A stretch of 5,608 nucleotides of DNA from a virus (IMGVR_UViG_2695420613_000010), one strand, 5' to 3'. Shown: positions 647 to 5,237, counted from the stretch's first letter. Numbers and translations are program-made. Notes: generated by a model not told the origin, from the letters alone.

Positions 647-1696
647 TTACCCGAGCACGCCAGTCGCAAAGGCGTGATCAAGAAAACGAAAAATTAACTC
701 AATCTGAGAGCCGTACTTTTTCTCAAACTCCAGCGGGTCTGCATGAAGTTCGTTGTGGTGCTCCCGGCACAACGGTAGCGTGAAAATATCGTGGGCCTTT
801 GTCCCCATTCCCCCCTGACCATGACCAATCAGGTGATGCGGATCGTCAGCAGGCTTACCACAACACGCACACGGCTGTGTCTTTACCCAGCGCGTGTATT
901 TCTCATTAACCCAGCGGCAACGTTTAGGCCGCCTCATGAACGATTCAGGAGACTCCGGATCAACGGCGATACTGACAACCGTTTTTTTCTGTGGTGGATT
1001 TTGTTGCTGGTGGACGTGAAGTGGCAGCGCAATATTTTTTGTGCGCTGCTTCAGTATGCTGATGGCTGTCTGTTCTCCCGGTACGATGTCACTCTCACGG
1101 TATACGGAGCGGATTTTTTCCGCTGGTAATCCCAGCGAACGACGCGCTACTGCCTCAGGTAGTGCATCCACCACCTGATTGCAGGCCGCCCACCAGGATA
1201 ATTCAGCCAGCGATAATTCACGCTCCTGTGTGCCATTCATTGCGTGACGAATGACGTCAATCATCCATGCTGACAGGTTTTGGTGAGCAAGTTGCTCAAG
1301 TGATTCGGAGGTCTGGTCACGCAACTGGTTGTCGCAGTGCCAGCACAACACCATTGCGCCGGTACCATAACGGTGAATGACGGTTTCACTGTGGTGATAA
1401 TCGCCGTGTGGCCACTGGCAGGATTTAACATGGCGCAGTAACCAGTCAGACAGTGCGCCAGCGCCACCAGCAGCACGAATCACTCGTTCGTCGCTGAAAA
1501 ATGGCAGTAATGATTTATCCTCCGCCAGCGGCTGGCGAACGGCAGGAACGACCCCGGACGGCAGATTACGCATGCTTTTCGGTTCCGGCTCCACCAGTAC
1601 CCGGGTATTGTGGAATACCGGCATGGATTCACGGCCCGGCTTAACGATCACCAGCCCGAGTTCCGGTACCAGAACAGGTCGAAGTAATACCCGCAC
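647..1696 (-). CDS. ydfU: DUF968-family prophage protein (YdfU-like) with a C-terminal HNH-like Cys/His motif
   Basis: 349-aa ORF starting at GTG 1696, preceded by GGAGGT inside the 3' end of the upstream gene. C-terminal CACCGK...DPHHLIGHG...LCREHHNELH resembles an HNH zinc-finger nuclease motif. Sits between rem-like and rusA, as ydfU does relative to rem/hokD in K-12 Qin (from memory). Start codon uncertain; M25 is an alternative. Confidence 0.75.
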   Translation of the reverse strand: MRVLLRPVLVPELGLVIVKPGRESMPVFHNTRVLVEPEPKSMRNLPSGVVPAVRQPLAEDKSLLPFFSDERVIRAAGGAGALSDWLLRHVKSCQWPHGDYHHSETVIHRYGTGAMVLCWHCDNQLRDQTSESLEQLAHQNLSAWMIDVIRHAMNGTQERELSLAELSWWAACNQVVDALPEAVARRSLGLPAEKIRSVYRESDIVPGEQTAISILKQRTKNIALPLHVHQQQNPPQKKTVVSIAVDPESPESFMRRPKRCRWVNEKYTRWVKTQPCACCGKPADDPHHLIGHGQGGMGTKAHDIFTLPLCREHHNELHADPLEFEKKYGSQIELIFRFLDHAFATGVLG

Positions 1697-2046: not shown

Positions 2047-2075
2047 AGAAAAAACAAAACCCGCCGAAGCGGGTT
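2047..2075 (-). terminator. Rho-independent terminator at the 3' end of the hok transcript
   Basis: Minus strand reads AACCCGC-TTCG-GCGGGTT followed by TTGTTTTTTCT: a 7-bp GC-rich stem with a UUCG tetraloop and a U-rich tail, about 70 nt after the hok stop. Confidence 0.7.
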
Positions 2076-2143
2076 AAGTGCGGGTGCGTTGAGGATGCCT
2101 GACACATCAGCGGTGGCGAGGGATTTCTCCCCCGCCTGGTCTC

Positions 2144-2299
2144 TTACTCCTCAGGTTCGTAAGCTGTGAAGACAGCGACCTCCGTCTGGCCGGTTCGGAT
2201 TCGTACCTCGCAGAGGTCTTTCCTCGTTACCAGTGCCGTCACTATGACGGTTAAACAGATGACGATCAGGGCGATTAACATCGCCTTTTGCTGCTTCAT
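2144..2299 (-). CDS. hokD: Hok-family type I toxin (host-killing membrane peptide), HokD/RelF-like
   Basis: 51-aa product MKQQKAMLIALIVICLTVIVTALVTRKDLCEVRIRTGQTEVAVFTAYEPEE, which from memory matches HokD/RelF. Single N-terminal TM helix plus conserved C-terminal Cys, typical of Hok/Gef. AAGGAG lies 7 nt upstream of ATG 2299. The track ORF 2144-2356 is an in-frame upstream extension. Confidence 0.9.
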   Translation of the reverse strand: MKQQKAMLIALIVICLTVIVTALVTRKDLCEVRIRTGQTEVAVFTAYEPEE

Positions 2300-2542
2300 A
2301 ACCTGCTTCTCCTTGCCTTTCGGCGCGTAAGAGGCTAACCTACGTTTGTGAAGCATAGATTGGGCCTCAGATTAATGTTAAGCGTCTTGCAGGACGCGTA
2401 ATGTTAACTGGGGCTTTTCTCTGTCTGCCTTACGGTGGCATGCCCGAGGCAGACAGCCTCAAGCACCCGCAGCAATTCTACTTAACTCTCGCTTTACAGC
2501 AAACCGTTTTGCCCGATATGGGAATTCCCATACGGAATGAAT
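2300..2542 (-). promoter_or_regulatory. hok leader / regulatory region with direct repeats and palindromes
   Basis: Contains 9-bp direct repeats TAATGTTAA (2373-2381 and 2399-2407) flanking the inverted repeat GCGTC-TTGCAG-GACGC (2382-2397), a perfect 10-bp inverted repeat CTGTCTGCCT/AGGCAGACAG (2421-2430 / 2447-2456), and a perfect 16-bp palindrome TATGGGAATTCCCATA (2517-2532). No mok-like overlapping ORF and no clear Sok promoter/terminator could be identified by eye. Confidence 0.4.
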
Positions 2543-2647
2543 TCAGTTCCCCAGGCGCTCCATCAAAAACACAACCAGGCAGTAAACACCCACAACAGCA
2601 ATAACAGCCAGAGCGCCTTCCATTACCAGTGAAATATCATCCGACAT
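2543..2647 (-). CDS. Hypothetical 34-aa single-TM small membrane protein
   Basis: ATG at 2647 preceded by AAGGGAGGG at about 4 nt. Translation MSDDISLVMEGALAVIAVVGVYCLVVFLMERLGN ends at TGA 2545-2543 and has a hydrophobic core consistent with one TM helix. Below the ORF-track cutoff. Confidence 0.45.
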   Translation of the reverse strand: MSDDISLVMEGALAVIAVVGVYCLVVFLMERLGN

Positions 2648-2682
2648 ATTCCCTCCCTTGGTGTGAATCCCGGCGAACGTTT

Positions 2683-2760
2683 TTACCCCCACCGACAAAT
2701 AACATATACTAGAAAAGCAATAGCTATAGCAACGCCTGCAAATGCATCTGGCCGGCTCAT
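2683..2760 (-). CDS. Hypothetical 25-aa hydrophobic peptide, translationally coupled to the 187-aa ORF (ATGA overlap)
   Basis: ATG 2760-2758 overlaps the TGA stop (2759-2757) of the 187-aa ORF; GGGGGAG lies 5-6 nt upstream. Translation MSRPDAFAGVAIAIAFLVYVICRWG ends at TAA 2685-2683. Very short, so this is a weak call. Confidence 0.3.
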   Translation of the reverse strand: MSRPDAFAGVAIAIAFLVYVICRWG

Positions 2761-4538: not shown

Positions 4539-5237
4539 TTACCCGTTATCTCCTGTCGTTATTTTCTGTATGACATCACGATGCTTATTAATTTCCCGCA
4601 GCGCGGCGCATAAGCGCTCCCACTTCTGAACCTGACCTTTTGCCCGGCGCAGCTCGCGGTTAGCCACATGCAGCGATGGTAAAATCAGACCATCCGGATG
4701 CTTTCTGATGAACGACGACTGTGACTGCACTGTGACCGCCACACTTTCAGTTTTAATTTCTTCCTGTGTTTCCGCTTCCCGGACTGGTAACGCAACACCT
4801 GCCGGCTGAGGAAAGGCTTTACCATCGGTTTCCGTTACCGATGCAGCTTTCGGCTCTGCCGGTAAATTATCGCCCGGTATGCAGTAACGATATTTACCGT
4901 CCTGATTTACGCGAATCAGACGACCTTTGCTGACAGCCATCGCCAGTGATGAATTCGCCCGGCGGGAGGTAATCCCGAACATTAACGCCAGTTCGTCAGC
5001 CGACTGAGGACCATGCTGTTCAATCGCGTTAATCAGCATCTCTGCAGTGGTTTTTGGGGCCGCTTCAGTTGCCTCACTCGTCAGCCACCACATCGACCCC
5101 TTGTTATCAGCTTCGCCACGACGCTTCAGCTTCCAGAGTTCGGTAACAGCATCGTCACGGCTGATTTCAAGACGGGCTGCAATCTCGTGCGACGAGGCTT
5201 TTTTCAGTGCTTTCAGTGCGTCAAAAACGGTTTCCAT
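4539..5237 (-). CDS. Conserved prophage protein with winged-helix-like N-terminus (tentatively DUF1627-like); start revised to internal ATG
   Basis: Track ORF 4539-5303 begins at an upstream alternative start, but ATG 5237 ([13 protein letters not shown]...) is preceded by GGGAGGAAAATTTA, a strong SD, giving 232 aa. The N-terminal 60 aa look like an HTH/winged-helix domain. The DUF1627 label is from memory and unverified. Confidence 0.75.

Follow-up and report, generated by a model that had tools for sequence, protein, structure and literature searches.

A perfect 16-bp palindrome, TATGGGAATTCCCATA, occurs at positions 2517–2532 of a 5,608 nt sequence from the virus IMGVR_UViG_2695420613_000010, the whole of which is termed the window here. 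The dyad is found between the stop codon of a 34 aa open reading frame and the hok toxin gene, where a first-pass annotation had correctly placed it. That annotation also considered the dyad unlikely by chance and proposed that it acts in repression or processing of hok expression, either as an operator bound by a dimeric protein or as a hairpin in the transcript. The question raised by this locus is what the palindrome represents and whether it is part of hok control.

A lambdoid prophage of E. coli O157:H7, e.g. in strain PV15-279, matches the window at 100% identity, and the window represents the nin region of that prophage. All genes of the window are on the minus strand. Their order is replication protein P (just outside of the window), the DUF1627 protein, several small open reading frames, a 187 aa open reading frame, a 25 aa open reading frame, the 34 aa open reading frame, the dyad, mok/hok, a 92 aa open reading frame, the DUF968 protein, RusA, and then Q (outside of the window). 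The nin region would be expected to be read through from the early rightward operon. The features around the dyad are:

2058–2075, minus strand: terminator-like hairpin with a T-run, 3′ end of the hok transcript (terminator scan)
2144–2299, minus strand: hok toxin coding region, 51 aa, annotated hokD in RefSeq (open reading frame map and annotation)
2144–2356, minus strand: mok, 70 aa, overlapping hok (open reading frame map)
2294–2468, minus strand: hok mRNA 5′ leader with tac, the Sok target and the mok translation-initiation region (Rfam RF01794)
2475–2503, minus strand: predicted hok promoter with −35-like and −10 sequences, placed from the sequence and its position relative to the start of the Rfam model
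2505–2677, no strand: module of approximately 173 nt (34 aa open reading frame and dyad), an insertion relative to Stx2-phage-type hok loci
2514–2545, plus strand: putative KilA-N gene remnant of approximately 32 nt, matching the Z1002 KilA-N gene
2538–2545, no strand: second small palindrome, TGAATTCA, read from the sequence and containing a second EcoRI site
2543–2647, minus strand: 34 aa hydrophobic open reading frame, MSDDISLVMEGALAVIAVVGVYCLVVFLMERLGN, with a GGGAGGG Shine-Dalgarno sequence (RefSeq hypothetical protein WP_001278460.1)
2683–2760, minus strand: 25 aa hydrophobic open reading frame ending in ..ICRWG*, a homologue of which abuts the hok cassette in loci that have no dyad

The 34 aa open reading frame yields no family in Pfam. 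The locus adjacent to the dyad is a complete member of hok/sok, with a Hok coding region, an overlapping mok and the RF01794 leader. The RF01794 match is full length (positions 2468–2294, 114.9 bits, E-value = 1.8e-26, gathering score 59) and places the start of the conserved leader at GGGUGCUUGAGGC. This start presumably matches the 5′ end of the R1 hok mRNA. Because the RF01794 match begins at 2468, the dyad is outside of the hok mRNA, which excludes it as a hairpin or processing site within this transcript. Relative to an hok mRNA start at approximately 2468, the dyad spans −49 to −64, with its centre at approximately −56. It is upstream of the −35-like hexamer (TTTGCT/TTGCTG, positions 2497–2503; the −10 sequence of the predicted promoter is TAGAAT, positions 2475–2480) and does not overlap the predicted hok promoter. 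The dyad does not have the placement of an operator relative to its promoter, and the same promoter is found joined to many other upstream sequences. Control of hok by Sok is post-transcriptional, by way of tac/fbi folding and the Sok antisense RNA, and no upstream operator is described (PMC9841398). A recent survey of Hok mentions neither KilA nor palindromes, and the hok literature examined is likewise silent on the dyad.

A promoter-anchored scan of viral contigs shows 44 distinct contexts upstream of hok. In this promoter-anchored sample the dyad is present in 52 of 116 hok loci and absent from 64. With the dyad outside of the transcript, without overlap with the promoter and missing from these 64 homologous loci, the proposed control of hok by repression or processing is not supported. 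A lack of conservation in homologous loci was among the outcomes that the annotation itself had named as counting against its proposal. The contexts consist of the following classes:

Class A: the 34 aa open reading frame, the dyad, and hok
Class B: a small open reading frame ending in ..ICRW(G/R)*, joined directly at TAAAAACGGTTTGC
Class C: paa, approximately 120 nt, the dyad, and hok
Class D: a homologue of the 34 aa open reading frame without the dyad (L007, L133)
Class E: an ORF6N gene, the dyad, and then a different spacer
Class F: several unrelated sequences joined at a common AAAACGG

For most phage hok loci (Stx2 phages, 933W-type), homology to the window extends no further than position 2510, and for others no further than 2491. 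The PPompW-type prophages are the only ones with homology to 2557, and a minority continue further. Many unrelated upstream sequences join the hok cassette at ...AAAACGGTTTGC (approximately 2510), a few bases short of the dyad, and the boundary of the hok/sok cassette is near 2510. In Stx2-phage-type hok loci the ..ICRW(G/R)* small open reading frame is joined straight to the hok promoter and the module is absent; in the window, AAAACG direct repeats at 2678–2683 and 2505–2510 bound the 173 nt module. Since the dyad is absent from most loci and is part of a 173 nt insertion relative to class B, it is outside of the transcribed and conserved hok cassette, does not travel with it and is dispensable to it.

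TATGGGAATTCCCATA is unique in the window, even at up to 3 mismatches. The other copy inspected in this O157 genome is at a paa-(22-bp dyad)-hokD junction of a different prophage, and is paralogous. Since this copy is again at an hok junction, the copies do not form a regulon, for which a search for further copies had been suggested.

By composition alone the 16-bp dyad is only mildly unusual. No other perfect palindrome of 16 bp or more is present in the window, the runners-up being 10 bp, and 8.1% of 2000 dinucleotide-preserving shuffles of the window hold some perfect palindrome of at least 16 bp. With a composition that is unremarkable in this respect, the case against chance rests on sequence comparison. 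Hundreds of E. coli genomes and many viral contigs share this dyad at the corresponding junction, and this recurrence indicates that the dyad is inherited, not accidental. Thus the earlier statement that the dyad is unlikely by chance is borne out by its recurrence across genomes, but not by composition.

A perfect 22-bp form, CGATATGGGAATTCCCATATCG, is present in 47 of 59 palindrome-bearing hok loci, and a dyad of the window type, with 1 nt deleted, in 11 of 59. The window reads CCG-TATGGGAATTCCCATATCGG, which is the 22-mer minus one A (CCG-TATGGG...), where sister loci have the exact 22-mer; the perfect dyad is cut from 22 to 16 bp by this loss. Other signs of decay among the hok-linked dyads are a mutation at the centre in L157 and a 22 nt deletion ending at the dyad edge in L097. 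A rough estimate from approximately 6–8 haplotypes, with one variant (L157), shows nothing significant in the way of extra purifying selection on the dyad in hok context.

As RNA, the window dyad folds into a 10-bp bulged hairpin with a delta G = −12.8 kcal/mol (z = −2.5), and the 22-bp form has a delta G = −14.5 kcal/mol (z = −4.5). The sequences downstream of the stem are UCGGGCAAAACGG on the minus strand and CGGAAUGAAUUC on the plus strand; neither strand displays a U-tract at the dyad, and a terminator scan and a promoter search made no call there. An intrinsic (Rho-independent) terminator was rejected, as there is no U-run and the scan is silent at the dyad though it called the hok terminator at 2075–2058.

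The origin of the dyad is suggested by its occurrence elsewhere. At least 120 IMG/VR contigs contain the exact 16-mer, and the majority of the copies examined are in a context other than hok. Most of these non-hok copies are in long open reading frames encoding ..LS.(D/V/N)MGIPI(S/T)(E/D)L....GG...QGTWVHP.., which Pfam identifies as KilA-N (PF04383). The annotation beneath the match in E. coli genomes and cyanobacterial plasmids is 'KilA-N domain-containing protein' as well. In the Pfam-confirmed KilA-N genes the exact 16-mer/22-mer is read as GAT ATG GGA ATT CCC ATA TCG (..D-M-G-I-P-I-S..). A REP/MITE-like mobile palindromic element, which would be expected in many dispersed chromosomal copies with target-site duplications, was also considered. 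Sampled E. coli copies are either at prophage hok junctions, mostly with no annotated feature beneath, or inside KilA-N genes; AAAACG direct repeats flank the 173 nt module of the dyad, and in other phyla exact 22-mers are found in unrelated contexts. The 63 stretches with an exact 22-mer in species-representative genomes (596 Gb) compare with approximately 0.03 expected by chance, by our own estimate. The hosts are Nostocales, Rhizobiales, Dehalococcoidia, Betaproteobacteria and Clostridia-type Bacillota, as well as Brachyspira, Spirochaetia, Rhodothermales, Bacteroidota and Enterobacterales. A chance palindrome without a history, which the proportion of shuffled windows would allow, is already refuted by these comparative data, i.e. 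an identical 16–22-mer at the same junction in hundreds of genomes and the 22-mer in KilA-N genes across phyla in an excess of this size.

The parent element is defined here, and not as a curated family, by a GGRATYCC-type core and complementary arms, CGATATGGGAATTCCCATATCG being the enterobacterial type. Its usual seat is a KilA-N (PF04383) open reading frame, with the ..L(S/E).. helix codons on one side and ..GG..QGTW.. on the other. When the window and 12 KilA-N loci were scanned against Rfam by E-value, the only matches were sok and weak unrelated ones, with no family for the element. The resemblance of GGGAATTCCC to an NF-kappaB site was dismissed as fortuitous.

A codon-degenerate scan for D-M-G-I-P-I-S-(D/E) found 24 distinct KilA-N contexts, all of which use GAT ATG GG(A/G) AT(T/C) CCC ATA TC(G/C); the conserved codons on either side, for Leu, Ser, Glu and Gln, show free variation in the same contexts. 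In Saprospiraceae and other Bacteroidota, KilA-N genes show the same palindrome at the same domain position but in another reading frame, where ..LLE(E/K) R-Y-G-N-S-H-I-A.. is encoded by CGA TAT GGG AAT TCC CAT ATC GCT. When KilA-N genes were picked by the downstream QGTWVHP motif only, differing palindromes were found at that position that are symmetric through paired, protein-altering changes:

Peptide DIGIPIS: palindrome CGATATCGGAATTCCGATATCG
Peptide DAGIPAS: palindrome CCGATGCGGGAATTCCCGCATCGG
Peptide EAGIPAS: palindrome CCGAAGCGGGAATTCCCGCTTCGG
Peptide ETGIPVS: palindrome TACCGAAACCGGAATTCCGGTTTCGGTA (28 bp)
Peptide EVGIPTS: palindrome CCGAGGTCGGAATTCCGACCTCGG
Peptide DTGIPVS: palindrome CGATACCGGAATTCCGGTATCG
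Peptide ETRIRVS: palindrome CCGAAACGCGTATACGCGTTTCGG

The reverse-complement codon pairs around G-I-P are M/I..I, T..V, V..T and A..A. Unlike peptides (SSSLKIKDEEL, AVVHIRTTEL, SALQIHRADL) are associated with 9–12-bp inverted repeats with short loops at the same position.

Covariation was counted in 40 KilA-N genes in one register. A standard pair is formed by 89% of the cells vs. 74.5% after shuffling (0/500 shuffles reach it), changes on both sides are seen in 9 of 10 pairs vs. 5.0 in shuffles and in 53 cells vs. 17 (0/500), and the covariation score is 0.371 vs. 0.135 shuffled and 0.04–0.07 for slid structures; as the KilA-N sequences are related, these counts from shuffles should not be taken as probabilities. 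In every one of the 40 genes, the codon before Gly has a third base complementary to the synonymous third position of the Pro codon (G-C in 25, C-G in 15). The G-I-P codons (GGN ATH CCN) come close to a palindrome by themselves, and this accounts for part of the core, though for neither the arms nor the wobble pairs. With no selection of register, the longest perfect inverted repeat of a 580 nt region falls in the 45 nt slot of the palindrome in 54 of 71 distinct genes, compared with a chance expectation that we estimate at approximately 8% of genes, or approximately 6 of 71. The slot is also the most stable 36 nt fold in 51 of the 71 genes (mean delta G = −14.9 kcal/mol, z = −2.9). These KilA-N samples represent one subfamily (QGTW[VL]H motif) and the best 80 matches of each scan. 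For an RNA sense-strand signature, G.U mismatches would outnumber those of A.C; the counts are 11 G.U vs. 24 A.C, which shows no such signature and is uninformative.

The comparisons indicate that the parent palindrome is maintained as a nucleic acid feature, and not for the peptide, across bacteria and viruses. From resemblance, the G-I-P segment may be read as the turn of a helix-turn-helix. Since the palindrome class is maintained at the nucleic acid level, a dimeric binding protein or a hairpin stays a reasonable physical reading of the dyad; this part of the first-pass annotation is supported, but the link to hok is not.

The window copy shows the relation to KilA-N genes more directly. 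E. coli Z1002 encodes the KilA-N protein WP_000200358.1, and in this strain the same nin-region slot carries an intact KilA-N gene on the strand opposite to hok, with its 5′ end facing hok; the order is DUF1627, a hypothetical gene, KilA-N reading leftward, and hok reading rightward. A blastn comparison of the window with this locus gives a 33 nt match of 90.9% identity at window positions 2545–2514, collinear with the hok match and on the same strand. The plus strand at 2514–2545 reads ..P-D-M-G-I-P-I.., in a direction away from hok. Beyond the dyad, 11 of 13 bases agree with the Z1002 KilA-N gene (TGAATT-A-TCCG). This flank similarity past the palindrome is short (approximately 13–22 nt) and was chosen from several KilA-N variants in both orientations, and its significance of approximately 1e-3 to 1e-4 is our estimate and not a computed value. 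The small palindrome TGAATTCA corresponds to GAATTAATTC (..S-E-L-I-Q..), which is found 3′ of the main palindrome in the codon tables of KilA-N genes. It overlaps the stop codon of the 34 aa open reading frame, the final codons of which fall within the putative KilA-N remnant.

A local KilA-N HMM found no match in L001 (the central part of the window and flanking prophage DNA), and the plus strand frame through the dyad is a 67 aa open reading frame without KilA-N features. With no KilA-N open reading frame around it, the window copy is an orphan, and from the intact KilA-N gene at this position in related prophages and the 91% match, it appears to be an orphaned gene remnant. A divergent hok leader is found 566 nt upstream in 14 of 80 enterobacterial KilA-N loci. 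Intermediates are also seen. In L028, L078, L092 and L202 (class E), 44 nt of KilA-N sequence (86–89%) is present beside hok, and the 5′ part of the KilA-N gene is replaced exactly at the palindrome edge. Breakpoints at palindrome edges are represented by the class E junction, the 22 nt deletion of L097 and the 1 nt deletion of the window.

The dyad is probably a passive, orphaned remnant of the KilA-N palindrome, slightly decayed, that is situated at a mosaic junction. The ancestral layout would have consisted of an intact KilA-N gene in the nin slot, transcribed divergently from hok. Mosaic recombination would then have removed the KilA-N gene and left approximately 32 nt (2514–2545) between the module of the 34 aa open reading frame and the hok/sok cassette, and a one-base deletion would have shortened the ancestral 22-bp perfect palindrome to 16 bp. 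At most, the window copy would form a hairpin of approximately −13 kcal/mol in read-through RNA of the early operon, or be a passive site for a factor of the parent element. The window dyad probably has no dedicated role in hok control.

Other copies are orphans as well. Approximately 25 of the 63 exact 22-mers are outside of a KilA-N open reading frame; clear KilA-N remnants among these are L338, L345 and L358/L034, and the others have no KilA-N flank. Several of the orphan 22-mers are in clusters of differently armed palindromes with a common GGAATTCC core. L311 displays five hairpins with this core in approximately 180 nt (2527–2705), in different frames and upstream of an 806 aa open reading frame. 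In Tolypothrix L347 a 38-bp palindrome is followed directly by CGGGAATTCCCG, and L336 is similar. Many virulent E. coli Dhillonviruses carry an exact 22–23-mer in intergenic DNA, and in the Dhillonvirus Teewinot it is present in five tandem 53-bp repeats just after the helicase-primase gene. A local HMM search of Teewinot in any frame and a Pfam search of 10 of its proteins showed no KilA-N. These searches give no KilA-N protein as a candidate binder of the Teewinot array; the helicase-primase gene is preceded by that of gp48, a small HTH protein. An association of orphan palindromes with nearby KilA-N genes is unsupported, with a KilA-N open reading frame in the same locus for only 3 of the 140 non-intragenic copies. 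The core is kept where there is no coding constraint, which argues for recognition by a trans-acting factor. The orphan copies, perfect in many unrelated non-coding contexts, may be functional sites rather than junk.

A wider reading, to which we give tentative though serious weight, is that the dyad is a copy of an undescribed, widespread element with a GG(A/T)AT(T/A)CC-type core, fixed in the KilA-N genes of bacteria, phages and giant-virus MAGs. This element would be the cognate site of a dimeric factor, most simply the KilA-N protein itself. With the site carried inside of its own KilA-N gene, gene and site would always move together, and orphan copies such as that of the window and arrays such as those of the Dhillonviruses would be further targets of the dimeric factor. 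It is unlikely that the orphan dyad is still a working cis element, i.e. a putative site for a dimeric nucleic-acid-binding protein, most simply a KilA-N protein of this or a co-resident prophage. Such a site could, as a roadblock or insulator, shield the hok promoter from early-operon read-through, or it could simply titrate the protein. The parent palindrome is kept at the nucleotide level across phyla, the GGAATTCC core is kept in non-coding arrays (L311, L347, L336, Teewinot), which argues for sequence-specific recognition, and most of the hok-linked copies are still perfect 22-bp dyads. However, no binding protein is known, a KilA-N gene is absent from the window and from 4 kb on either side of the match, and Teewinot gives no KilA-N match in the searches described above. 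In addition, the window copy is one base short, other hok-linked copies are mutated or truncated, and most hok loci with the same promoter are without the dyad.

A role as an RNA hairpin on the message of the upstream 34 aa open reading frame, either as a 3′ stabiliser or in weak factor-dependent termination or pausing that limits read-through into hok, is less probable again. The dyad starts 10 nt past the stop codon of the 34 aa open reading frame in the window and 18 nt past the ORF6N stop codon in class E, and in three junction classes it is found 10–20 nt after the stop codon of whichever gene is upstream, a spacing that would suit a 3′ hairpin, as would the stable fold (−12.8 to −14.5 kcal/mol). 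But both strands are without the U-tract, the terminator scan is silent, the dyad is approximately 124 nt beyond the upstream paa in PPompW-type prophages, and in class D (L007, L133) a homologue of the 34 aa open reading frame adjoins hok with no dyad. The dyad is very improbable as an operator for a dimeric HTH repressor of the hok promoter, for which a candidate is the DUF1627 protein encoded at 4539–5237. It has perfect symmetry and a suitable length, and a possible DNA-binding protein is encoded nearby, as the DUF1627 family member displays weak HTH-like matches, all sub-threshold. Against this, the centre at approximately −56 gives no overlap with the promoter, there is no second copy in the window, and known hok control is post-transcriptional; furthermore, prophages that encode DUF1627 differ upstream of hok, with an intact KilA-N gene in L201 and an ORF6N gene in L202.

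With the dyad taken as a probable KilA-N remnant, the result for hok biology is deflationary: neither an operator nor a processing site for hok should be ascribed to the dyad, which marks a point of recombination and the loss of a gene. For annotators, exact 16–22-mers common to unrelated phages reflect this element and not recent exchange. The finding on the window dyad is modest, but the parent element that it exposed looks new. It is a striking case of constraint at the nucleotide level that dictates the residues around a conserved G-I-P. Among DNA-binding domains, KilA-N is one of the commonest in phages, prophages and large DNA viruses; to our knowledge its targets and regulation have not been described. 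A palindrome kept at one place in KilA-N genes, as suggested by the compensatory changes, the two reading frames and the reuse in non-coding arrays, would offer a definite candidate, open to experiment, for a site of KilA-N recognition or regulation. A literature search gave no paper with the motif, a KilA-N binding site or a link between KilA-N and a palindrome, and the parent element is apparently new to the literature.

Several known systems can be compared with the dyad and its parent element. The hr sequences of baculoviruses consist of tandem imperfect palindromes with an EcoRI site at the core, are bound by dimeric IE1, and serve as enhancers and origins. By analogy only, the five 53-bp repeats of Teewinot resemble these in being arrays of GAATTC-centred palindromes near viral replication genes; however, the hosts are different, as are the proteins, and only one copy is present in the window. 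An intragenic autoregulatory site is a second case. Clerget and Boccard reportedly found in 1996 that HK022 Roi, a product of the nin region, binds within its own gene, which is similar to the parent element in that the coding region of a nin-region DNA-binding protein gene is under constraint at the nucleotide level. Unlike coding-embedded cis elements, the parent element is a full palindrome through its centre, is found outside of genes as well, and has no Rfam family. HK022 Roi itself was rejected as an example of the element: the protein, of 241 aa, displays none of the sequence features of KilA-N, and ATGGGAATTCCCAT has no match in the nin region of HK022 at 3 or fewer mismatches.

Correction of quasipalindromes by intrastrand template switching, a mutational mechanism known in E. 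coli from the work of Ripley and of Lovett and co-workers, would keep the arms complementary without selection, and could explain both the compensatory-looking changes and the perfect orphans. Arm-to-arm correction of this kind is a neutral alternative to recognition by a trans-acting factor. However, it leaves unexplained the fixed position in KilA-N genes across phyla and the GGAATTCC core shared by differently armed non-coding copies.

With respect to hok/sok (parB of plasmid R1) and its homologues hokD/relF and hokW, the neighbouring locus is a complete member, but the dyad is outside of the cassette, upstream of the boundary at approximately 2510, and missing from most members. A further likeness is to remnants at the mosaic junctions of lambdoid phages, a mosaicism that was reportedly described by Juhala and co-workers in 2000 and by Clark and co-workers in 2001. 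As in those, a short piece of a neighbouring gene is left and alternative modules are joined at a short common sequence, here AAAACG(G/T)T. Unlike those, the piece that survives here is precisely the palindromic part of the gene, with several independent breakpoints at its edges.

A palindrome of 12–28 bp is found at a single fixed position in KilA-N (PF04383) genes of bacterial phyla, phages and giant-virus MAGs. Example positions in the compared loci are:

L201, 4001–4024
L298, ~1562–1583
L441–L520, ~545–575

The palindrome is retained whether the frame reads DMGIPIS or RYGNSHIA, and comparison of the genes indicates that it is kept up through compensatory changes that alter amino acids, together with covariation at synonymous sites. 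An Rfam scan gave no family for the KilA-N palindrome and a literature search found no paper on it. Some open reading frames also display two GGGAATTCCC-core sites, 20–30 nt apart:

L107, 13856–13909, CGATATGGGAATTCCCATATCG followed by ACGGGAATTCCCGT
L286, 621–661, KilA-N gene with a second TGGGAATTCCCA

The dyad upstream of hok is a one-base-deleted form of the 22-bp palindrome (22-mer) carried by most related loci. Two EcoRI sites, 17 nt apart, are present here:

2522–2527, first EcoRI site
2539–2544, second EcoRI site

The second site is situated within a small palindrome, TGAATTCA, whose counterpart in KilA-N genes is GAATTAATTC (codons ..E-L-I..), 3′ of the main palindrome. The dyad and a 34 aa open reading frame together make up a 173-nt segment (window 2505–2677) that is absent in loci of the Stx2-phage type. 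AAAACG direct repeats at 2505–2510 and 2678–2683 bound the segment, and from these repeats the 173-nt difference could have arisen by insertion, or by deletion between short repeats. Two small hydrophobic open reading frames are found just upstream of hok:

2543–2647, minus strand, 34 aa
2683–2760, minus strand, 25 aa

Each shows one predicted membrane-spanning segment and has homologues in other prophages, and the 34 aa open reading frame carries a strong Shine-Dalgarno sequence, GGGAGGG. Neither has a family in Pfam.

In E. coli FORC_041 (L202, 1932–2523) and three further hok loci (L028, L078, L092), a gene with an ORF6N domain lies on the hok strand and stops 18 nt short of the dyad. The FORC_041 prophage also carries a RelE/ParE-HTH toxin-antitoxin pair just 3′ of hok. 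In the window, isrK is matched by the Rfam scan at 2054–2135 (minus strand), below threshold at 27.2 bits vs a gathering score of 50; the match spans the hok 3′ end and the terminator hairpin (2058–2075) and is probably driven by the hok terminator. The DUF968 protein (647–1696, minus strand) adjoins RusA; its residues 271–320 show a sub-threshold HNHc_6 nuclease-like match.

Palindromes with differing arms and a common GGAATTCC core are clustered in apparently non-coding DNA of three loci:

L311 (Alcaligenaceae MAG), 2527–2705, five in ~180 nt
L347, 4447–4491
L336, 7885–7929

Downstream of the L311 cluster is an 806 aa open reading frame in which Zn-ribbon-like and PD-(D/E)xK-like motifs were seen by eye.

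Orphan copies of the 22-mer, outside a KilA-N open reading frame, occur at L034 ~7069 and L358 ~7604 (lambdoid phage or prophage, Siccibacter). Their flanks comprise ~15 nt of KilA-N-like sequence and another inverted repeat (GACGGTAATCG ... CGATTTACCGTC), and they lie between cro-like and cII-like genes, the place of nutR/tR1 in lambda. The exact 22–23-mer is also present in intergenic DNA of many Dhillonviruses. In one of these, Escherichia phage Teewinot (OK499993.1), five 53-bp tandem repeats at 37650–37900 directly follow the 3′ end of the helicase-primase gene; each holds TTGGGAATTCCCATATCG, and one of the five has the perfect 22-mer. Beyond them, GCGGGACA repeats make up another array at ~38010–38110. 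This layout resembles iterons, or else an array serving as an origin or in regulation.
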